DNA from: an uncultured Actinomycetes bacterium
Lineage (GTDB): Bacteria > Actinomycetota > Thermoleophilia > UBA2241
Reading direction: 5' to 3'
NCBI GenBank assembly: GCA_963725665.1
Contig: CAVRZA010000002.1
Location: forward strand, 64,001-128,000
DNA length: 64,000 bases
Both the position numbers and the translations under genes were made by a program. Positions 192 through 62,242 of this stretch are shown one piece after another; the first letter of the stretch is position 1, and every line of letters starts with the position of its first letter. The notes beneath the pieces were generated by a model. That model ran no database searches. It had not been told where the DNA came from and saw only the letters and a list, made by a program, of their open reading frames with translations.

Positions 192-1424
192 TCAGATCTC
201 GCGCACCCGCGCCGTTGCGAGCCCGATGAGGCCGGGCAGGCCGACGATGAGCCCAGCGACGACGAACAGGCCTTGCACGCTGTAGATGCCGGCGAGCGCG
301 CCGCCGACGAGGATCGAGAGGGCGTAGAAGCCCTGCGTGAGAGCGAAGCGGACACCCCAGACGCGGCCGCGCAGGTGCTCGGGCACCGTCTCCTGGAAGA
401 ACGTGTCGATCGAGATAAGCGCGGCCGCGTTGGCCACTCCCAGCGCGAGGAACGCGACCAGGATCGTCGTCAGGTTGTGAAGCAAGCCCACGAAGACGAG
501 CGAAGCGCCCATGACGCCCAGGCCGACCGTCATGGCGTAGCCCTTGCGGACGCGTGACCCCAGGCCGGCGAGCAGGGCGGATCCGCCGAGGTACCCGACT
601 CCGATGGCGGCCTCCATGAGGCCGAAGGCCTTGGTGCCCTGCCCCAAGACGTCCACGGCGAGCAGGAACGTGAGCGGGTAGGCGGCGCCGAGCCCGAGCA
701 CGGCCGCGACGACCAGCACGGTGTTCGCCGCGAGCTGGCTGTGACCGAACAGGAATCGGATGCCCTCCATGATCTCGGCGCCCACGTGGCGAGCATGGCG
801 AAGGGCGGCCTCGCGCACCGGGGGCACGTAGACCATAAGCGCGAGGGCCGCGGCTGAGACGAGGAAGGTGCCGCTGTCGGCCGCGAAGGCGATCCGTGTC
901 GAGAAGTAGTAGGCGACGAGACCGGCCACCGAATAGCCGATGATCTCGCTCAGGTTCTCGCCCATCGTCAGCAGCGAGTTGGCGCGCACGAGCTGCCGTC
1001 GCTGCACGATGTCGGGCAGGAGAGAGAGCTTACAGGGATCAAAGAAGACGGCGACGCTCGCCATGGCGAAGCTGATGGCGAACACGAAGGGCAGCCCCGG
1101 ATGCGCGACAAGGGCCACGGTCAGGACAAGCCCTGCGCGCACCAGATCGGCGACGATCATCAGGCGGCGCTTGTTGAAGCGATCGATGACAACGCCGGCG
1201 AACGGCCCAAACAGGACATACGGCAGCGTGTACAGCGCCAGGACCACGCCTGTGGAGAAGGCCGAGCCGGTCTTCTGGTAGACGAGCCAAGGGAAGGCGA
1301 CCATGGCGAGCCGGTCGCCGAGCTGCGAGACGACCTGACCCGTCCAGAGCAGCAGGAAGTTGCGGTTGGCGGAAAGCCTCTGGGTCGGGAGTGCCGCGAT
1401 GGTGTCCGACGTCGCCACGCGCAA
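192..1424 (-). CDS. MFS transporter (DHA3/macrolide-efflux-like)
   Basis: NRNFLLLWTGQVVSQLGD start, GVVIDRFNKRRLM motif A, VPEHLRGRV C-terminal motif, ~12 TM; exact start uncertain. Confidence 0.9.
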   Translation of the reverse strand: MRVATSDTIAALPTQRLSANRNFLLLWTGQVVSQLGDRLAMVAFPWLVYQKTGSAFSTGVVLALYTLPYVLFGPFAGVVIDRFNKRRLMIVADLVRAGLVLTVALVAHPGLPFVFAISFAMASVAVFFDPCKLSLLPDIVQRRQLVRANSLLTMGENLSEIIGYSVAGLVAYYFSTRIAFAADSGTFLVSAAALALMVYVPPVREAALRHARHVGAEIMEGIRFLFGHSQLAANTVLVVAAVLGLGAAYPLTFLLAVDVLGQGTKAFGLMEAAIGVGYLGGSALLAGLGSRVRKGYAMTVGLGVMGASLVFVGLLHNLTTILVAFLALGVANAAALISIDTFFQETVPEHLRGRVWGVRFALTQGFYALSILVGGALAGIYSVQGLFVVAGLIVGLPGLIGLATARVREI

Positions 1425-1595: not shown

Positions 1596-1617
1596 ACGCT
1601 GATCGTTGTATCAGCGT
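1596..1617. promoter_or_regulatory. Palindrome upstream of the small-peptide ORFs (operator or short hairpin)
   Basis: ACGCTGAT-N6-ATCAGCGT, just downstream of a candidate -10 TACGAT (1584-1589). Confidence 0.4.
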
Positions 1618-1649
1618 TTGGTGCTCACACTGCAACGGAGGGGCCACTC

Positions 1650-1679
1650 ATGCGTCGTGAGAACGTCAGACTGCACTAG
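1650..1679 (+). CDS. 9-aa small ORF MRRENVRLH (putative signal or leader peptide)
   Basis: Strong SD GGAGGGG at 1637-1643, 6 nt before ATG; shares its C-terminal RLH with the next ORF. Confidence 0.55.
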   Translation: MRRENVRLH

Positions 1680-1700
1680 CTTCGCCGCAGGCAACGAACT

Positions 1701-1778
1701 ATGAGGAAGATCGAGACAGTACTGGCGTCAATCCTCATGGCGCTAGTGTCTTCGGGGGGGAGCGCCAGGCTCCACTGA
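1701..1778 (+). CDS. 25-aa small ORF MRKIETVLASILMALVSSGGSARLH (putative exported signalling-peptide precursor)
   Basis: Basic N-terminus, hydrophobic core, small-residue linker, polar tail; directly upstream of the membrane HD-GYP gene; weak SD. Confidence 0.65.
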   Translation: MRKIETVLASILMALVSSGGSARLH

Positions 1779-1789
1779 TTTCCCAGCCT

Positions 1790-1816
1790 TAAGAGTCGCA
1801 GGTATCATGCCGATAG
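1790..1816 (+). promoter_or_regulatory. sigma28 (FliA/WhiG)-type promoter of the HD-GYP gene
   Basis: TAAG-N15-GCCGATAG versus consensus TAAA-N15-GCCGATAA, 19 nt before the GTG. Confidence 0.65.
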
Positions 1817-1835
1817 GCTTACTATCTGCGGCGGG

Positions 1836-3272
1836 GTGATTTTGGCTGGGCAAAACCGATTGTTCACCGCGTACGCCGGCGCGATGCTCACGGCATCAAT
1901 CGTCGGCTTCCTTGTCGCATCTTGGCATGCGCACCTGCTTGACTTGCCCCTATCGGGCTTCGCCACCGTTGGGCTGTTCACTCTCCTCGCGATAATCGCA
2001 GAAGAGCTCTCCGTTGTTGTTTCTGACCGCGTTACGATCACGGCTAGCAACCTCCCCCTTCTGCTCGGAATCATGTTTCTCGGCACCCCGCGCGCTGTTC
2101 TCACGGCGGCTCTCGTCGGGCTGTGGGGGAGTTGGCGCGAGGAGTCCGCTCCACTGGCCGTGTTCAATGTGTCCAACTTCATGCTCACCACGTTGCTCGC
2201 GTCGCTGGCGTTCGAGGGGCTCCGTTCAACAACGGGGTTCAGCCTATCCGAGGTCTCGGTCGAGCTGCTTCTTGCGGGCGCTGTCGCTGGGCTCATCTAT
2301 CAGGTTGGTGCTCTTGCTTTTCTCAGCGTGGGAGCTCGGCTCAGATATGGCCGATCGCTGCGCCGGTTCTGGCGAAGCGAACTCGCCCCGCTAGGCCAGT
2401 CTCTTGCCATCCTCACGGGCCTCGGGTTGGCCGTCGCAGCGGTCTACGCGCAAGCGGGGGTGATCGCCGTTGCTCTGCTCTTCATCCCCCTCTTTGCCGC
2501 CCAGTACATGTTCAAACTGCTCGTGGAGCAGAGGCGTCTCCTGGCCGAACAGAGGCAGCTGTCCGACCAGTACCTCGAGATGAACATCGGGCTCGCTGCG
2601 GCGATGGTGGTGCTCCTCGACAGCAAGGATGAGTACACCGCCAGTCACTCGGCAGCAGTCGCCATGTACTGCAGGGACATGGCCCTGTCCATGGGGATGT
2701 CCGAGGACGAGGCTGAAGCCCTGCACCTGGCCGGTCTGCTGCACGATCTCGGAAAGGTCGGGACGCCGGACGCCATCCTCAGGAAGGACGGCAAGCTCGA
2801 CCCCGACGAATGGGCGTTCATCCACGAGCATCCGGCCAAGGGTGCCGAGGTGCTCTCTCACCTTGCCGCCTACAAGGACGTAGCCGACATCGTGCGCTAT
2901 CACCACGAACGTCTCGACGGCAGTGGCTACCCCTACGGGATCCGCGATGGGCAGATCCCCGAGCTCAGCAAGATGCTGGCGGTCGCGGACGCCTACCACG
3001 CCATGACCTCGGACAGGCCCTACCGGCCGGCGCGGAGCTCGTTTGACGCGCTGAAGGAGTTGCGGCGCATGTCCGGTGTGAGCCTGGACGGCAAATACGT
3101 CGAGCTCCTGGCCTCCATTTTGCGGGACAAGGATCTCGCCTACCGGGAGGGCACCTCGACCGACTTCATGGGCGAGTACGAGCGCGGGCGGATCAACCTC
3201 CGCCTCAGGGCGGACGCGATCGCTCAGATCAGCGAGACGATGCGGGCACGCCGAGACCCAGCCGTAGGCTGA
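1836..3272 (+). CDS. Membrane-anchored HD-GYP cyclic-dinucleotide phosphodiesterase
   Basis: ~7-8 TM N-terminal region, coiled-coil linker, LLHDLGK, HHERLDGSGYP, VADAYHAMTSDRPY motifs intact. Confidence 0.92.
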   Translation: MILAGQNRLFTAYAGAMLTASIVGFLVASWHAHLLDLPLSGFATVGLFTLLAIIAEELSVVVSDRVTITASNLPLLLGIMFLGTPRAVLTAALVGLWGSWREESAPLAVFNVSNFMLTTLLASLAFEGLRSTTGFSLSEVSVELLLAGAVAGLIYQVGALAFLSVGARLRYGRSLRRFWRSELAPLGQSLAILTGLGLAVAAVYAQAGVIAVALLFIPLFAAQYMFKLLVEQRRLLAEQRQLSDQYLEMNIGLAAAMVVLLDSKDEYTASHSAAVAMYCRDMALSMGMSEDEAEALHLAGLLHDLGKVGTPDAILRKDGKLDPDEWAFIHEHPAKGAEVLSHLAAYKDVADIVRYHHERLDGSGYPYGIRDGQIPELSKMLAVADAYHAMTSDRPYRPARSSFDALKELRRMSGVSLDGKYVELLASILRDKDLAYREGTSTDFMGEYERGRINLRLRADAIAQISETMRARRDPAVG

Positions 3273-3850: not shown

Positions 3851-4867
3851 CTAGTGGAGGGTGACCTCCCCCGCGTGGAATCGACGAATATGCCGGTGCG
3901 GAAGCTCCACCAGCAAAGCGCCGCGGTCGTCGATGCCGGCGGCCTCACCGATGACGGGCCCCTCGCGCGTGAGGACGCTCACGCTGCGATGCAACAGATA
4001 GTCACGTGCACGGAAGCCTCGCAGGGGCTTCTCGAAGCCGTTGGCCGCCGCATCTAGGTAGCATTTCTCCAGGGCGAGCAGGATGCGCGCGAGAAGGACG
4101 CTCCTATCCACAGGCCTCCCCGTCGCGGTCTTCAAGGAGGTAGCCGAGCGGCGGAGGGTGACGGGGAGCTCGGCGTACTCCGTGTTCACGTTGATGCCGA
4201 CGCCCACAACGACCCAGTTGACCTCGTCGAACTCGCCCGACACCTCGAGCAGGATCCCCCCGACCTTGCGGTCGTTCACTATGAGGTCGTTGGGCCACTT
4301 GACCTGGACGGGGGTCTTTGTCTGCCCCTCGATGCCCTCGGCCGTGGCGGTCGCGGCGACGAGAGTGAGGAGATGGGCCTCTGTCATCGGCAGCCGCGGC
4401 CGCAGGACGACCGAGAAGAGCAATCCCTTGCCGGCCGGCGATGTCCACTGACGGCCCAGTCGACCACGACCGGCCGACTGGTGCTCGGCGATCACCACGG
4501 TGCCTTCCGGAGCACCGCCGCTTGCCAGCCTCTTGGCCTCGCTGTTTGTCGACTCGATCTCGTCGTAGTACCTGAAAGAATGCCCGAACAACGTGTTCTG
4601 CATGAGTTTGGCGACGACCGGCATGACCAGCCGGCAGGGCTCCTCCTCGAGTCTGTAGCCGCGCCTCGACACACCAAGGATCCGGTAGCCGCGGCGCCGC
4701 AGCGAGTTGATGTGCTTGTGTACTGCGTTCCGGGAGATGCCGAGGCTGCCGCTTATCGCTTGGCCGGAGACAAAGCCGGGACTGTCACGAAGAATGTCGA
4801 TCACTGTCTTCTTGCGATGGCTCATCGTTCCCGATTCGACGTGTACCACTGACGCTGACGACTCCAT
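3851..4867 (-). CDS. birA: Bifunctional biotin-protein ligase/repressor (group II, N-terminal HTH)
   Basis: VSGQAISGSLGISRNAVHKHI HTH, QSAGRGRLGRQW, KWPND, KVGGIL; SD GAGGAGG before ATG 4867. Confidence 0.95.
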   Translation of the reverse strand: MESSASVVHVESGTMSHRKKTVIDILRDSPGFVSGQAISGSLGISRNAVHKHINSLRRRGYRILGVSRRGYRLEEEPCRLVMPVVAKLMQNTLFGHSFRYYDEIESTNSEAKRLASGGAPEGTVVIAEHQSAGRGRLGRQWTSPAGKGLLFSVVLRPRLPMTEAHLLTLVAATATAEGIEGQTKTPVQVKWPNDLIVNDRKVGGILLEVSGEFDEVNWVVVGVGINVNTEYAELPVTLRRSATSLKTATGRPVDRSVLLARILLALEKCYLDAAANGFEKPLRGFRARDYLLHRSVSVLTREGPVIGEAAGIDDRGALLVELPHRHIRRFHAGEVTLH

Positions 4868-4922
4868 CTCTCCTCCTCGCTCGCAATTGAGGCCATGGTA
4901 GGAAGATGGAGATCGACCGTAA

Positions 4923-7850
4923 TCAAACCTCGGTTGTATCTGCGGTGGCCTGCGGTTGTGGAGTCTGGCGCGGTTCGTCCCGACAGTCGTTCCGCGCCTC
5001 GCTCGCGGATTCCCTATACAGCAGCACAGCATGAACCCTGTCCGTGACGCCCACCTTGCCGAAGATACGATTGACGTGCGTCTTGACAGTTCCCGGAGCT
5101 AGGAAGAGCCTCTTGGCAATCTCGTCGTTGCGCATTCCCTCTGCCATCATCGACAGAATCTCACGCTCCCTCTTCGTCAGCTGGGTCAAGAACCCAGCAG
5201 GGGAATTCGCACGATCTGACTTCGACGCCATTTGTCCTGCTAGACGTCGTACGGAGGCAAAGCGACTTCTTGTCGCCTTGTGCAGAAGCACGTCCAAAGA
5301 CTGCGTTGGCATCCTGCTCCCGGCACTCTCCAGTGCAGCTGACGCGACCTCTGGGTTCACTGCGAGCGCTTTCATCATGAGTGGCAGCCCGTTGGGATGG
5401 ATTGCCACTGTGTCAAGAAGCGACCGACCCACTGAGTGGGGCAGCTTCTGGAGCAAATCGAGACAGAGGACGGGCTCGCCGCAAAGCTCCTGGCTCAGGA
5501 AGTGAACGTGGCCTCGTTCGAGTTGGCTCTCAACCACTTCTTCGAGCGATTGGATAGCCGCTTCTCGGTTTCCTCGACGCCAACTCAAAACCCCTGTGAA
5601 GAAGTCGCATTTCAGCTGTACGAATTCAAGGTTGCTTGCGCGACTCCGTGCCGCGACTGCGTGAAGATCGCGGAAGGGACGATTCGAATCCCCTTGGAGT
5701 CCACGAGTGAAATGGAGATTCGCGAGGCAAGTGAAGTGGGGATACGGAAAGCGTTCCGACACCAATTCGGATCCCCGCTTGTAGCAGGCGTGTGCTTCGT
5801 CGAGATTACCGGTGCGGCGGCAAGCCGTGCCCATGTGGGAGAGGGTTAGAGCGCGAACTAGACCGTCGTCCGCTGCTTGTGGGGCCTCGGACGCTGTCTT
5901 GACCAGCTGGTAGCCACTTTCGAAATCACCCCTACTGACCAGAACCTGGCCCAGAGAATCCAGCGTCATGTGCTCCAGATGGTGGAAGCCGCACCGAGTC
6001 AAGAGCCCAAGAGACTCGCGGATCAACTCCTCCGCCTCGCGATAGCGACCCAAATGCATCTCCATGTTGCCGAGCACGTTGAGGAATGACGCTTCCAAGA
6101 TGCGAGGGCCGTGTTCACGCAGTCGAGTAAGTGCGGAGCGTCCCTCCTCCGCGGCGCGCAGGAAGTAGCCCCGGAAGTAGTCGCAGTACGCTCGCATGCA
6201 GGCTATTCGAAGCTCTTCAGGTGCGGTCGCGTCTACCAGGGCTTCCTCCGCTTGTGACCACAGTGATTCGCACTCCGCCCACTGCGCCTCGAGCATAAGA
6301 GCTGCACCGAGGCTAATGAGGGAGTGAGCTTTCTTGGTCCCATCCGGTGCGTACTTGATGGCCCGGCGACACTCAGCGGCGGCGGCTACAGTGTCGCCTT
6401 TCCAGAACAGAGCTGATTCAATCGCAGACGCGGCGTGGTATCGGCCCCACCTGTCCCTCCTTTGGGCGAAGGAGGCTTCTGCTGAGCGGAAGATGGCGAT
6501 GGCTTCGTCGAACCTCCCGTCGCGCAGGTCGATCTGGCCGGCGAGAAGCAGTGCCCAGACGCTCCCTCGCCTCATGTCATTGGGCAGTCGAGCAAGCCAC
6601 GATCGCATGCTGTCGAGGGTCGAGTTCTCGAGGGCTAGCTCACCCGCCTTGGCAAGACAATCGAGGGCGAGCGTCGGCTCATTTGCGGACAAGTAGATCT
6701 CGACGGCGACTCCAGTGTCGCCCGCTCGTTCCATGACGCTGGCGGTCTTCAGCTGCAGGTCGTGGAACTCGCGCGCGCCGTCCTCTTGGGCGCACTTCTG
6801 GCGCAAGTAGTCGCGAAAGAGAGGATGGTAGCGGTAGGTGAGGCGCGCGGCATCCGCGAAGGTGAAGACCTGGTTCTTCTCGAGGTAGTCGAGGATGCGC
6901 TCGGCGTGGTCGCCCCCTGTGATCTCGTTGGCGAGGGCTGCCGTCACGTAGTCGAGACAGCTTGTGCGTTTCAGGAAGCCCCGCGTCTCATCACTTTCTC
7001 GCTGATAGACCTGTTCTGCGAGATACGAGAAGACGTCGCTCTTCAGTCGCGGATCTCCCAGCGCCACCTCGATGGCGGGCAGTCCGTCCCACTGCAGGGC
7101 TTTGCAGGCGAGCACCACGCTGGCTGGCCAGCCCTCCGTGAGCTCCTCGAGACGTGTCGCAGCAGCCACAGGTATCTCGACGTCTGCGCGCAACTTGAAC
7201 ACCGTCCTGATCTGTCCGGCATCGAGCCGCAGGTCTTCGTAGCGGAGCTCGGCGATGTCGTCGTCTAGCCGCAGTTTCGCGGTCGAGAACGAAGGCTCGA
7301 ACCGCGTGAGAAGGACAACGTGAACGTGGCCAGGCAGGTTGGCGAGTAGGAAATCGAGGGCTTTGTTGAGTTCACGTGAGGCCGAGGCTTCGTGGTAGTC
7401 ATCGAGGACGAGGTGAAGCGTCAGCTTCACCTCGTCCTCGAGCTCGTGGACGAACAAGGCAAGCAGTTCAGGGACGGTGATCGGCACCTCGCGCGAGTTG
7501 GAGAGGCGTTCGATGACCACCTCGCCGAAGCTTGCGACCTGTCGGCGAATCGCTTCAGTGAGCGAGGCCACTAGTACGATCGGGTCGTGATCGAGGACGT
7601 CGAGCTTGTACCAGGCCGTCGTCCAATGGAGTCGCCCGGCGGCTTCAGCGATCAGCGTACTCTTGCCGTAGCCCGCGGGCGCCGAGACGAGCAGCAACCT
7701 CCGCTGTGCTCCCTCGGCGACCTTCTCGAGTAGGCCGGCTTTGATGCTTGCCTGGCCGACGGAGGGCGGTGAGAGCTTGGAGGCGACAAGCGTGGGGCTG
7801 CCGGAGGCCGGCGAAGCGGGGGGACGCGCAGCATCTCGGGTGCCGGGCAT
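4923..7850 (-). CDS. MalT-like STAND ATPase / TPR-like repeat / LuxR-HTH transcriptional regulator
   Basis: APAGYGKST Walker A, LVLDDYH Walker B, TEGWPA, YRYHPLFRDYL, helical repeats, LTKREREIL...TVKTHVNRIFGKVGV. Confidence 0.92.
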   Translation of the reverse strand: MPGTRDAARPPASPASGSPTLVASKLSPPSVGQASIKAGLLEKVAEGAQRRLLLVSAPAGYGKSTLIAEAAGRLHWTTAWYKLDVLDHDPIVLVASLTEAIRRQVASFGEVVIERLSNSREVPITVPELLALFVHELEDEVKLTLHLVLDDYHEASASRELNKALDFLLANLPGHVHVVLLTRFEPSFSTAKLRLDDDIAELRYEDLRLDAGQIRTVFKLRADVEIPVAAATRLEELTEGWPASVVLACKALQWDGLPAIEVALGDPRLKSDVFSYLAEQVYQRESDETRGFLKRTSCLDYVTAALANEITGGDHAERILDYLEKNQVFTFADAARLTYRYHPLFRDYLRQKCAQEDGAREFHDLQLKTASVMERAGDTGVAVEIYLSANEPTLALDCLAKAGELALENSTLDSMRSWLARLPNDMRRGSVWALLLAGQIDLRDGRFDEAIAIFRSAEASFAQRRDRWGRYHAASAIESALFWKGDTVAAAAECRRAIKYAPDGTKKAHSLISLGAALMLEAQWAECESLWSQAEEALVDATAPEELRIACMRAYCDYFRGYFLRAAEEGRSALTRLREHGPRILEASFLNVLGNMEMHLGRYREAEELIRESLGLLTRCGFHHLEHMTLDSLGQVLVSRGDFESGYQLVKTASEAPQAADDGLVRALTLSHMGTACRRTGNLDEAHACYKRGSELVSERFPYPHFTCLANLHFTRGLQGDSNRPFRDLHAVAARSRASNLEFVQLKCDFFTGVLSWRRGNREAAIQSLEEVVESQLERGHVHFLSQELCGEPVLCLDLLQKLPHSVGRSLLDTVAIHPNGLPLMMKALAVNPEVASAALESAGSRMPTQSLDVLLHKATRSRFASVRRLAGQMASKSDRANSPAGFLTQLTKREREILSMMAEGMRNDEIAKRLFLAPGTVKTHVNRIFGKVGVTDRVHAVLLYRESASEARNDCRDEPRQTPQPQATADTTEV

Positions 7851-18602: not shown

Positions 18603-18678
18603 AGGGCTGTAGCTCAATTGGTAGAGCACCGGTCTCCAAAACCGGGGGTCGGGGGTTCGAGTCCCTCCAGCCCTGCCA
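18603..18678 (+). tRNA. tRNA-Trp (CCA)
   Basis: 76-nt cloverleaf, anticodon CCA at 18636-18638, GTTCGA T-loop, encoded CCA end; canonical rpmG-trnW-secE context. Confidence 0.98.
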
Positions 18679-61292: not shown

Positions 61293-62242
61293 GCGCTGTC
61301 CGAACGAGGTGCGAGCGCGGCGCCGAGCGTGTCGAGCGCGAGACGCACGGCATGCAGCGCCGTTAGCTGCGCCGGGTCGTAGAGCGGGTCCACTTCGACG
61401 ACGTCCATGCCGATCAACCGCCCTCGCCGCGCCACCGCGCGCAACAGCGCCTTGGCCTCGTAGTAGGTGAGACCACCCGGCTCGGGCGTGCCGGTGCCCG
61501 GCGCGATGGCCGGGTCGAGCGCGTCGATGTCGAGCGTGACGTACACCGGTTCTCCCGGCTCGATGTGCGCCACGAGCTCCTCGACGGGCGTCCTCTTGAC
61601 CTCCTCGGCCCAGCGGATCGTCACGCCGCGGCTGCGCGCCAGCTCGATGTTGTCGGCAGGCGTGTGCAGGCCGCGGATGCCGAACTGGGTCACGCCGGCC
61701 ACCAAAGCGGCCTCGTGGGAGCGGATGATGGGGCTGGCGTGCGTCGTCGTGACCCCGCCCTCTTCCTCCCAGTAGTCCATGTGCGTGTCGAGCTGCACCA
61801 GGTGGGGTCGACGGCCGGCGAAACCCTGCAGCACCGGGTAGGTGATGGAGTGGTCGCCGCCGAGGACGAGGGGGAGGAGGCCGGCCTCGAGCAGGGCGGC
61901 GACGCGCGCTGCAACGATCGGGTGGTTGCGCTCAGCCGGCGCCATGGTCGGCAGTCCTATGTCGCCGACATCGACGAAGCGAACGCCGCCTAGGACCTCG
62001 GTCTTGGCCTCGCCGTCGTAGTAGGGCTCGTCGCCGCTGCGGTAGGCGTAGAAGAGCGAGACCTCACGCATGGCGCGAGGGCCATAGCGAGCACCGGGAC
62101 GGTTCGTGACTCCCTCGTCGAAAGGGATGCCCAGCACGGCGACCTGGCCGTCGGCCGTTGTCGGCTCGGGCACATACGGAGCTCCCAAGAACGTCGGGAT
62201 GCCGCTGTAAGGAATGGCTGGGTGCTCCCGGCGCTCGCCCAT
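61289..62242 (-). CDS. Ureohydrolase (agmatinase-family) protein
   Basis: RPGARYGP, GGDHSIT, DTHMD, DIDALDP..APGTGTPEPGG; -10 TATGCT 6 nt before ATG 62242. Confidence 0.9.
   Translation of the reverse strand: MGERREHPAIPYSGIPTFLGAPYVPEPTTADGQVAVLGIPFDEGVTNRPGARYGPRAMREVSLFYAYRSGDEPYYDGEAKTEVLGGVRFVDVGDIGLPTMAPAERNHPIVAARVAALLEAGLLPLVLGGDHSITYPVLQGFAGRRPHLVQLDTHMDYWEEEGGVTTTHASPIIRSHEAALVAGVTQFGIRGLHTPADNIELARSRGVTIRWAEEVKRTPVEELVAHIEPGEPVYVTLDIDALDPAIAPGTGTPEPGGLTYYEAKALLRAVARRGRLIGMDVVEVDPLYDPAQLTALHAVRLALDTLGAALAPRSDSA

Follow-up and report, generated by a model that had tools for sequence, protein, structure and literature searches.

We analysed a stretch of 64,000 nucleotides (nt) from an uncultured Actinomycetes bacterium of the class Thermoleophilia (GenBank assembly GCA_963725665.1, contig CAVRZA010000002.1, positions 64,001 to 128,000 of the forward strand). 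The whole of this stretch is called the window, and plain coordinates refer to it. Near its beginning two small open reading frames (ORFs), ORF-A and ORF-B, precede a gene for a multi-transmembrane (multi-TM) protein with an HD-GYP domain, called the receptor here. We would give an even chance to the reading, drawn from sequences and gene arrangements, that ORF-B is the local member of an undescribed family of ~25-residue membrane micropeptides acting on MASE9-HD-GYP sensors across Actinomycetota. An earlier note, made from the letters of the window alone, had pointed to a 25-residue ORF at 1701-1778, 57 nt before the multi-TM HD-GYP gene, and to a 9-residue ORF with a strong Shine-Dalgarno sequence which ends in the same tripeptide written in different codons. 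Both are present as it described. The peptide cassette and the receptor gene are laid out as follows.

1637..1643, plus strand: Shine-Dalgarno sequence of ORF-A, purine-rich
1650..1679, plus strand: ORF-A (mini-ORF), 9 codons, ending in K/R-[ILMV]-H and a stop codon
1701..1778, plus strand: ORF-B (micropeptide gene), 25 codons, with basic N-terminus, hydrophobic core, Gly-Gly and five-residue tail
1789..1816, plus strand: WhiG (sigma-28)-type promoter-like site for the receptor, -35-like element 1789-1794, 15-nt spacer, -10-like element 1809-1816
1836..3272, plus strand: receptor ORF, 478 codons (478 amino acids), after a gap of 57 nt behind ORF-B
1836..2540, plus strand: divergent MASE9 membrane sensor domain, receptor residues 1 to ~235, by a Pfam match below the cut-off and by hhalign
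2604..3092, plus strand: HD-GYP catalytic domain, receptor residues 257-419 (HD_5 E 1.1e-39, HD 2.4e-21)

The purine-rich run, situated 5-8 nt before the start of ORF-A, is kept in orthologous loci. In the window the C-terminal tripeptides of ORF-A and ORF-B are identical, with three synonymous codon differences between them and different stop codons.

Conservation of the two small ORFs

The receptor was searched for in 61 related genomes and the 30 best loci were taken; L001 is the window itself, L002-L029 belong to the same uncultured Thermoleophilia family and L030 to another family. Being related, these genomes are non-independent observations, and several of the counts given here and below come from pattern scans of sampled loci. 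ORF-B was intact in 25 of the 29 family loci; it was frameshifted in L003, decayed in L016 and absent from L017 and L024. ORF-A with a strong Shine-Dalgarno sequence was likewise present in 25 of the 29; an ORF-A with a start codon was not found in L016, L017 and L029, and L005, with 194 nt of upstream sequence only, was left unjudged. Every family copy of both ORFs ends in K/R-[ILMV]-H, with the exception of two mini-ORFs of L024, which end in Arg. In eight family loci the tail is multiplied, either as 2-3 tandem tail units within the mini-ORF or as two mini-ORFs.

The ORF-B sequences change as coding sequences do. Among 22 aligned ORF-B sequences the entropy at the three codon positions was 0.78/0.43/1.34, and the ratio of nonsynonymous to synonymous differences (pN/pS) was 0.38. 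Where Arg replaces Lys in the tail it is written with three different codons, and many synonymous differences occur; the variety of Arg codons argues for selection at the level of the peptide, which the earlier note had already suspected from the two copies in the window. By these measures ORF-A and ORF-B are genuine coding sequences under purifying selection. In the family profile ORF-B is conserved over all 25 residues, without the tail being singled out, and the tail of both ORFs is nearly invariant over at least 10 genera. In addition, ORF-A and ORF-B shared the middle tail residue in 11 of 23 loci, where 6.0 would be expected (p 0.012 by shuffling, a value which takes no account of relatedness).

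With a profile of the 25-mer, 27 of the 37 family genomes gave strong matches, 28 in all (E at most 5.3e-8), one per genome except for two in G030; in 24 genomes from other families within the class no match had an E below 0.019. Comparison of coordinates placed 26 of these 28 matches on the strand of the receptor and just before it, and two at contig ends. We also scanned one genome per species, 185,579 species in all, with a back-translated pattern. Of the 24 stretches found, 22 were true ORFs, and the titles of their records all name metagenome-assembled genomes of Thermoleophilia, Actinomycetes or Actinomycetota; the two stretches from Bacteroidota were not ORFs. The receptor followed directly downstream of 19 of the 22 ORFs, the remaining three being at the edge of the retrieved piece.

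The gap between ORF-A and ORF-B is 5-60 nt, and ORF-B often has no Shine-Dalgarno sequence of its own, the window copy included; translational coupling of the two is therefore likely. In L027, L028, L029 and L003 the receptor or ORF-B is split by a frameshift or an in-frame stop next to intact neighbours, which may be assembly error or real decay.

The receptor is a divergent MASE9-HD-GYP protein

The TM part of the receptor was compared with the Pfam family MASE9 (PF20972). The match, over receptor residues 30-223 and model positions 6-197 of 203, scored 21.6 bits (E 2.3e-4), under the gathering cut-off of 24.3 bits, and a MASE9 family search at E 1e-6 gave no match in the genome of the window or in other sampled Thermoleophilia. 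When the family TM profile was aligned by hhalign with the TM domains of six Pfam-positive MASE9-HD-GYP proteins, a probability of 99.2% was obtained (E 3.7e-19, 225 columns). Similarly, tblastn alignments of the window receptor extended into the TM region in 10 of 14 MASE9-HD-GYP loci (query start 36-55). As judged from these profile comparisons, the TM domain of the receptor is a divergent MASE9 domain. A crude hydropathy scan showed hydrophobic stretches over residues 9-230 and a loop at 168-185 with six Lys/Arg residues. MASE9 has been described with about eight TM segments, two of them short, and with short outer loops, and it is thought to bind a ligand within the membrane, no ligand being known (10.1101/2021.11.05.467447).

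In an alignment of 24 orthologs the HD and GYP-containing motifs do not vary, which places the protein in the HD-GYP family, and by these intact motifs the receptor is a predicted phosphodiesterase of cyclic di-GMP (c-di-GMP). The multi-TM domain and intact HD-GYP domain recognised in the earlier note were in this way both recovered by the searches. Its view that the architecture was uncharacterised held in part: proteins with a multi-TM region and HD-GYP are already described as MASE9-HD-GYP (10.1101/2021.11.05.467447), and it is the link to a peptide which is new. The receptor resembles TM1467 of Thermotoga maritima and HdgA of Streptomyces venezuelae in having an N-terminal multi-TM MASE9 domain and HD-GYP, although, unlike the Pfam-positive members, it stays below the MASE9 cut-off. 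For TM1467 and HdgA neither an upstream small ORF nor a ligand is mentioned in the accessible text of the MASE9 and Streptomyces papers.

The genome of the window has a second MASE9-like gene (L038, a 581-codon frame), the start of which (G000:C3 about 61990-62150) runs through ~10 tandem 15-nt repeats encoding an acidic, hydrophobic pentapeptide repeat. It was dropped as a second instance of the arrangement because no such small ORF is there.

Small ORFs upstream of MASE9-HD-GYP genes in other families

Of 301 genomes of the class, 83 had a match to the TM-domain profile; these include 51 of 55 in the family of the window, 14 of 24 in a second family (f6) and 9 of 55 in a third (f4). All 11 f6 loci retrieved carry an ORF of 25-31 residues with the build of ORF-B, a strong Shine-Dalgarno sequence and an Arg/Trp-rich tail. 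The order there is micropeptide ORF, sigma-70-like promoter and receptor, with no mini-ORF and no gene for a major facilitator superfamily (MFS) transporter, a gene which in the window stands divergently upstream of the cassette. In f4 a six-codon ORF behind a very strong Shine-Dalgarno sequence was found in 8 of 10 loci, seven of the eight ORFs ending in Trp; one locus was left unjudged and no six-codon ORF was seen in L050. A WhiG-like motif, read by eye in the alignment, lies between the six-codon ORF and the receptor of f4. Two loci with paralogs of the family receptor carry two tandem signal-peptide-like ORFs, then the receptor and then an MFS gene.

The arrangement was also followed outside the class. 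Pfam MASE9 matched in 72 of the 301 Actinomycetota genomes that were sampled; three genomes counted here carry an unpublished flag, and none of the loci sampled is from those three. From the Pfam-positive loci we took 20 with short MASE9 genes (417-518 codons) from eight other Actinomycetota families of 30-67% G+C. In 19 of them a signal-peptide-like ORF of 23-30 codons lies upstream on the same strand, again built of a basic N-terminus, hydrophobic core and small-residue motif with an end that is short and basic/aromatic, and one of these 19 ORFs has no Shine-Dalgarno sequence. All six of the short proteins checked had MASE9 above the cut-off and HD_5. For longer MASE9 proteins (512-775 codons), 3 of 20 loci had such an ORF upstream, one of them doubtful; one histidine kinase and one GGDEF-EAL protein were among the long proteins checked. 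A strict ORF pattern combined with a Shine-Dalgarno sequence was found in 13 of the 20 short MASE9 loci (19.3 kb) and not at all on the opposite strand; the strict pattern occurred twice on the two strands of the 3.73-Mb genome of the window and missed the window copy, which has no Shine-Dalgarno sequence. The earlier note had named small hydrophobic ORFs upstream of homologous receptors as the thing to look for, and the f6 loci and 19 of the 20 short MASE9 loci have them.

Comparison of the family 25-mer profile with a profile of 20 other-family peptides by hhalign gave a probability of 88.6% (E 2.7e-6). The small-residue motif is kept while the tails vary between receptor clades. In some loci the micropeptide gene is present in two to three tandem copies, each with its own Shine-Dalgarno sequence; L129, L130 and L132 have identical copies, and in L152 there is a difference of one residue between them.

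Some side observations were made at these loci. The gene that precedes the micropeptide in f6 codes for a V4R-GGDEF-receiver-LuxR protein (L094:2044-3975, L095:2157-4025), therefore a putative diguanylate cyclase/regulator beside the phosphodiesterase. In L173, L174, L175 and L179 the MASE9-HD-GYP gene is followed by an overlapping second HD-domain paralog with weaker HD_5 scores and preceded by a conserved gene of ~216 codons without a Pfam match. The tandem HD pair resembles the hdgA-hdgB operon of Streptomyces venezuelae (PMC6205966).

Nature of the 25-residue peptide

The maximum 12-residue hydropathy of the 25-mer is 2.29. Its size and hydropathy are those of a single membrane helix, and insertion into the membrane may be expected from them; the related peptides across the phylum likewise resemble micropeptides that cross the membrane once, the small-residue motif preceding the short basic/aromatic end. 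The ORF-B product also has the shape of a signal peptide, and the only family models hit, all below threshold, were those for the Phr N-terminus and for lipoprotein signal peptides. Above the cut-off, the peptides of the window family and of other families matched neither a Pfam nor an NCBIfam model. The Phr-type model TIGR04429 gave no match for the window peptide and 14.1 bits for the L013 peptide (cut-off 25). Nor does the peptide belong with Phr and RRNPP systems by its context, the adjoining gene encoding a membrane HD-GYP enzyme and not a cytoplasmic tetratricopeptide repeat (TPR) receptor. In a collection of 15 billion proteins three of five family peptides were absent and two were present without a name.

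For these peptides, for which there is no curated family, we propose the term MASE9-associated micropeptide: an ORF of 20-32 residues, on the same strand as a MASE9-HD-GYP gene and at most about 400 nt upstream of it, whose product combines a basic N-terminus and a short basic/aromatic end with 12-20 hydrophobic residues and a small-residue motif. ORF-B falls within this definition. We found no description of such an upstream peptide in Pfam, in NCBIfam or in the accessible main text of the literature searched on MASE9, HD-GYP and HdgA. The constituent parts are of known kinds, and the combination of peptide and receptor appears to be undescribed.

A MASE9-binding micropeptide as the favoured explanation

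In the explanation we favour, the ORF-B peptide would insert in the membrane as a single helix with its basic N-terminus inside, and would pack against the MASE9 domain of the neighbouring gene product through the small-residue motif (Gly-Gly or Ala-Gly). Its short basic/hydrophobic C-terminus would then be presented to the sensor, the peptide acting as a regulatory subunit or tethered ligand that sets the phosphodiesterase activity. Small-residue motifs of this kind suit helix-helix packing. We favour this reading because it joins the single-helix size and hydropathy, the conservation over the full length, the small-residue motif and the published view that MASE9 binds its ligand within the membrane.

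ORF-A, the MFS transporter and the WhiG-type promoters are, in our proposal, additions of the Thermoleophilia family to which the window belongs. ORF-A probably arose when a micropeptide gene was duplicated and one copy lost the membrane segment, and its strong ribosome-binding site probably loads ribosomes onto ORF-B. It would also make a free tail peptide, which the co-travelling DHA3-type MFS transporter may export. A function for the free tail peptide itself is suggested by the likeness of the tails of ORF-A and ORF-B and by the amplification of tail units. A phosphodiesterase driven by WhiG would close a feedback loop on c-di-GMP.

A wider form of this proposal, somewhat unlikely in our judgement, is that the micropeptide is the missing ligand of MASE9, tethered phylum-wide and made diffusible in two Thermoleophilia lineages by way of 6-9-residue peptides and the MFS transporter, the whole forming a self-reinforcing switch driven by WhiG. 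The short basic/aromatic C-terminus would dock into MASE9 and gate the phosphodiesterase, the exported tail peptides would be read by that sensor too, and a peptide would trigger the switch, WhiG being kept in check by RsiG together with c-di-GMP. The tail peptides would then come from some of the smallest free-standing genes known.

Several observations speak against the favoured explanation. Within the family the block MFS-cassette-receptor-BioY-BirA is syntenic, and adjacency within the family alone is therefore weak evidence. Some receptors have no peptide beside them: no small ORF was seen in five of the seven family paralog loci, in L133 or, clearly at least, in the f3 and f7 loci and most f5 loci, and the family loci L017 and L024 have no ORF-B. 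The f4 loci, which have no membrane micropeptide, are not explained by a membrane-subunit model alone. A tail shared with a soluble mini-peptide fits a free ligand at least as well as a tethered one. The 88.6% similarity between the peptide profiles may be inflated by shared signal-peptide composition. Finally, a window-type MFS gene stands beside none of 14 sampled MASE9-HD-GYP loci of other families.

Alternative explanations

The peptide could instead be a secreted signal, which we regard as unlikely, the 25-residue product being a pre-peptide cleaved after the small-residue motif or within the membrane, with its C-terminal 4-8 residues read from outside by MASE9 in an autocrine or quorum fashion and with ORF-A giving that peptide free of a signal sequence, for export by the MFS transporter. 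This would agree with the signal-peptide shape of ORF-B (n-region, h-region and small-residue c-region), whose sole, sub-threshold family matches are to signal-peptide and Phr models, and with a small-residue motif that is conserved next to tails differing between receptor clades. The tail-only mini-ORFs of one to three tail units and the six-codon ORFs of f4 likewise suggest that the tail is the active part, and mini-ORFs accompany the MFS gene in the family of the window and in f4, while f6 has neither. However, conservation is as strong in the hydrophobic part as in the tail, and a tail so constant across genera is unlike diversifying pheromones. A processing protease, an ATP-binding cassette (ABC) exporter and an Opp-type importer were not seen in the locus, the paralog loci carry the MFS gene without a mini-ORF, and most Actinomycetota loci have no MFS gene. 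Control in cis by leader or arrest peptides, functionless in themselves, with ribosomes stalling at the conserved C-terminal tripeptide and the stalling controlling how far transcription reads through into the downstream genes or how these are translated, seems to us quite improbable. ORF-A does resemble short arrest peptides in its very strong ribosome-binding site, its variable interior and its conserved last three residues; the f4 ORFs are all of exactly six codons and nearly all end in Trp, and the 5-60 nt gaps together with the frequent lack of a Shine-Dalgarno sequence before ORF-B indicate translational coupling. Read-through into the receptor gene would be possible too, as we found no terminator-like site between ORF-B and the receptor in the window. 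On the other hand, in three families the receptor is divided from the small ORFs by a conserved promoter, identical copies of the gene are found in tandem, and the 25-residue hydrophobic body, of which an arrest function has no need, is conserved in character phylum-wide. Rfam gave only a chance snoRNA match on 1300-2000 at E up to 10, and with neither an Rfam family nor a terminator-like structure found, the region does not classify as a leader or attenuator. A monitoring substrate of the SecM/MifM type was dropped, since a chain of 25 residues is too short to reach the membrane while still bound to the ribosome.

The peptide might also be a small membrane protein unrelated to the receptor and merely its stable neighbour; it could, for example, assist the MFS pump or resemble a type I toxin. 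Among small hydrophobic peptides of this size there are both pump accessories and type I toxins, the minus-strand promoter of the family would give an RNA antisense to the 5' end of the cassette, and the region is syntenic within the family. Nevertheless, eight other families show the pairing with MASE9-HD-GYP genes amid otherwise different neighbours and without an MFS gene, and such ORFs are rare upstream of MASE9 proteins with other outputs (the 3 of 20 given above), so that we consider this very improbable.

Promoters and the WhiG/RsiG context

Alignment of the upstream regions showed one motif in two copies, one on the plus strand between ORF-B and the receptor, the other on the minus strand upstream of ORF-A, where it overlaps the ORF-A Shine-Dalgarno sequence and faces the MFS gene. 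The WhiG/flagellar consensus consists of the -35 element TAAA, N15 and the -10 element GCCGATAA (PMC8325347). The strict WhiG motif was found in 16 of the 30 loci on each strand. In the window the plus-strand site at 1789-1816 has two mismatches to the consensus, as seen in a relaxed motif scan, and the minus-strand motif is a degenerate remnant; at this place there is an 8-bp inverted repeat (1596..1617, no strand), which the alignment puts opposite the conserved element of the relatives, a minus-strand WhiG-type promoter.

The genome encodes a sigma factor of the FliA/WhiG family (TIGR02479, 280 bits; cut-off 189.6), and flagellin was not found in it at 97.5% completeness. The exact WhiG motif occurs 8 times in the genome against 0 for a reversed control, and the relaxed motif 15 times against 2; the genes downstream of these sites include an NlpC/P60 hydrolase and a DUF4388 protein. 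In addition, RsiG's c-di-GMP-binding motif gave a single six-frame match, in a 107-codon frame (G000:C8:219626-219946, minus strand, L184), which matches RsiG chains of the PDB with E 1.4e-10 to 4e-8 and is a candidate single-motif RsiG. Thermoleophilia are described as carrying a single-motif RsiG together with WhiG, and the predicted WhiG regulon of Rubrobacter includes dgc/pde genes (PMC8325347). The sigma factor, the RsiG homolog, the motif sites and the Rubrobacter precedent together make a WhiG-driven phosphodiesterase plausible, and on the motif matches it is plausible that the receptor promoter depends on WhiG. The locus is in this respect like Actinomycetota's RsiG-(c-di-GMP)-WhiG switch, the genome having WhiG and an RsiG homolog and the receptor promoter being near the consensus; a link to small peptides is unmentioned for that switch in the accessible text of PMC8325347.

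Three other candidates for conserved elements were set aside. A consensus sigma-70 site at 1780-1808 is not the conserved element; an RNA hairpin upstream of ORF-A has a 5' arm that is invariant even without the 3' arm, its loop being the reverse-complemented WhiG -10 box; and a BldD box in the element upstream of ORF-A gave no match by eye.

Comparison with known systems and significance

A single-pass peptide of a few tens of residues that acts on a membrane sensor, by way of the sensor's membrane-embedded or periplasmic part, as is proposed here, is known from MgrB or SafA with PhoQ. There is no sequence relation to these, and the proposed target here is a c-di-GMP phosphodiesterase and not a histidine kinase; the peptide gene here is fixed beside this target across a phylum. 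The Phr, PapR, AimP and SHP/PrgQ peptides of Firmicutes likewise come from short precursors with a signal-peptide-like body and with the activity in a few C-terminal residues, and the SHP and PrgQ precursors, of ~22-25 residues, are similar in size to the ORF-B product. The receptors of these peptides are cytoplasmic RRNPP or Rgg proteins reached after import, whereas the gene linked here encodes a membrane HD-GYP enzyme; in contrast to Phr- and SHP-type systems, processing and import genes were not seen at the locus, and the Phr match is below the cut-off. In the RpfC/RpfG signalling of Xanthomonas a diffusible signal factor (DSF) activates an HD-GYP phosphodiesterase and c-di-GMP drops. DSF is a fatty acid and acts through a separate histidine kinase, whereas here a peptide would act on a sensor fused to the enzyme.

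MASE9 is a widespread membrane sensor domain without a known signal, and a fixed micropeptide partner is a concrete candidate for its input. No phenotype was seen for the Streptomyces MASE9-HD-GYP member that has been studied, which its authors suggest was due to a lack of activating signals under the conditions used (PMC6205966). If our proposal is true, a peptide input would be added to c-di-GMP phosphodiesterases, and possibly to the RsiG-WhiG developmental switch; in its wider, less likely form, a quorum-type circuit would in effect be wired straight into second-messenger breakdown, with no kinase or transcription factor as the receptor. The proposal would also be another case of genes of 6-25 codons that are skipped by annotation and have a regulatory function. 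The pairing makes the question of the MASE9 input testable in cultivable actinomycetes.

Neighbouring genes

The following further features surround the cassette and the receptor.

192..1424, minus strand: DHA3-type MFS transporter (Pfam MFS_1 3.4e-44, MFS_3 2.5e-32), divergent from the peptide cassette
411 nt: intergenic region between the MFS gene and the cassette
3' of the receptor, minus strand: BioY and BirA genes

The MFS protein of the window scored 230.8 bits with TIGR00900, under the cut-off of 319.6; the Mef, Tap and EntS models match weakly, and MFS_1 and MFS_3 are above their Pfam cut-offs. In f4 an MFS homolog follows the receptor on the same strand in all nine loci examined downstream, and an MFS gene adjoins the receptor in both of two paralog loci; in the family of the window it is divergent from the receptor. 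The receptor-linked MFS proteins scored 98.6-168 bits to the window MFS, and the two paralogs in the same genome 85-94 bits. From these higher scores it follows that a particular MFS subfamily travels with the receptor, in two gene orders. Arrest of the macrolide type (+x+) controlling a Mef-like MFS gene was dropped, as the MFS gene of the family is on the other strand and has its own promoter.

In the intergenic region between the MFS gene and the cassette there are two exact 10-nt direct repeats 20 nt apart (1478-1487, 1498-1507) and two exact 8-nt repeats 80 nt apart (1445-1452, 1525-1532). The 8-mer is one base off the reverse complement of the invariant element upstream of ORF-A in the relatives. 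These repeats may be operator sites of a regulator.

A MalT-like regulator with STAND ATPase, TPR and LuxR parts (4923-7850, minus strand) is encoded three genes from the receptor, its end overlapping the long BirA frame. In f6 a TPR-HEAT-LuxR protein (L094:6278-7999, minus strand) is encoded convergently to the receptor and shares 24% identity with the MalT-like regulator over 376 residues (E 5e-15); the f4 loci have none. The TPR-LuxR regulator was dropped as a peptide receptor, being near the locus here and in f6 and not in f4, and belonging to a common type of gene. The longest BirA frame (3851-5032, minus strand, 393 codons) starts ~70 codons before the helix-turn-helix (HTH_11 from residue 73), and the true start is probably further downstream. 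Elsewhere in the window a gene for tRNA-Trp (anticodon CCA, 18603-18678, plus strand) is the sole RNA gene found, the Rfam search of the whole window having given this one tRNA only.

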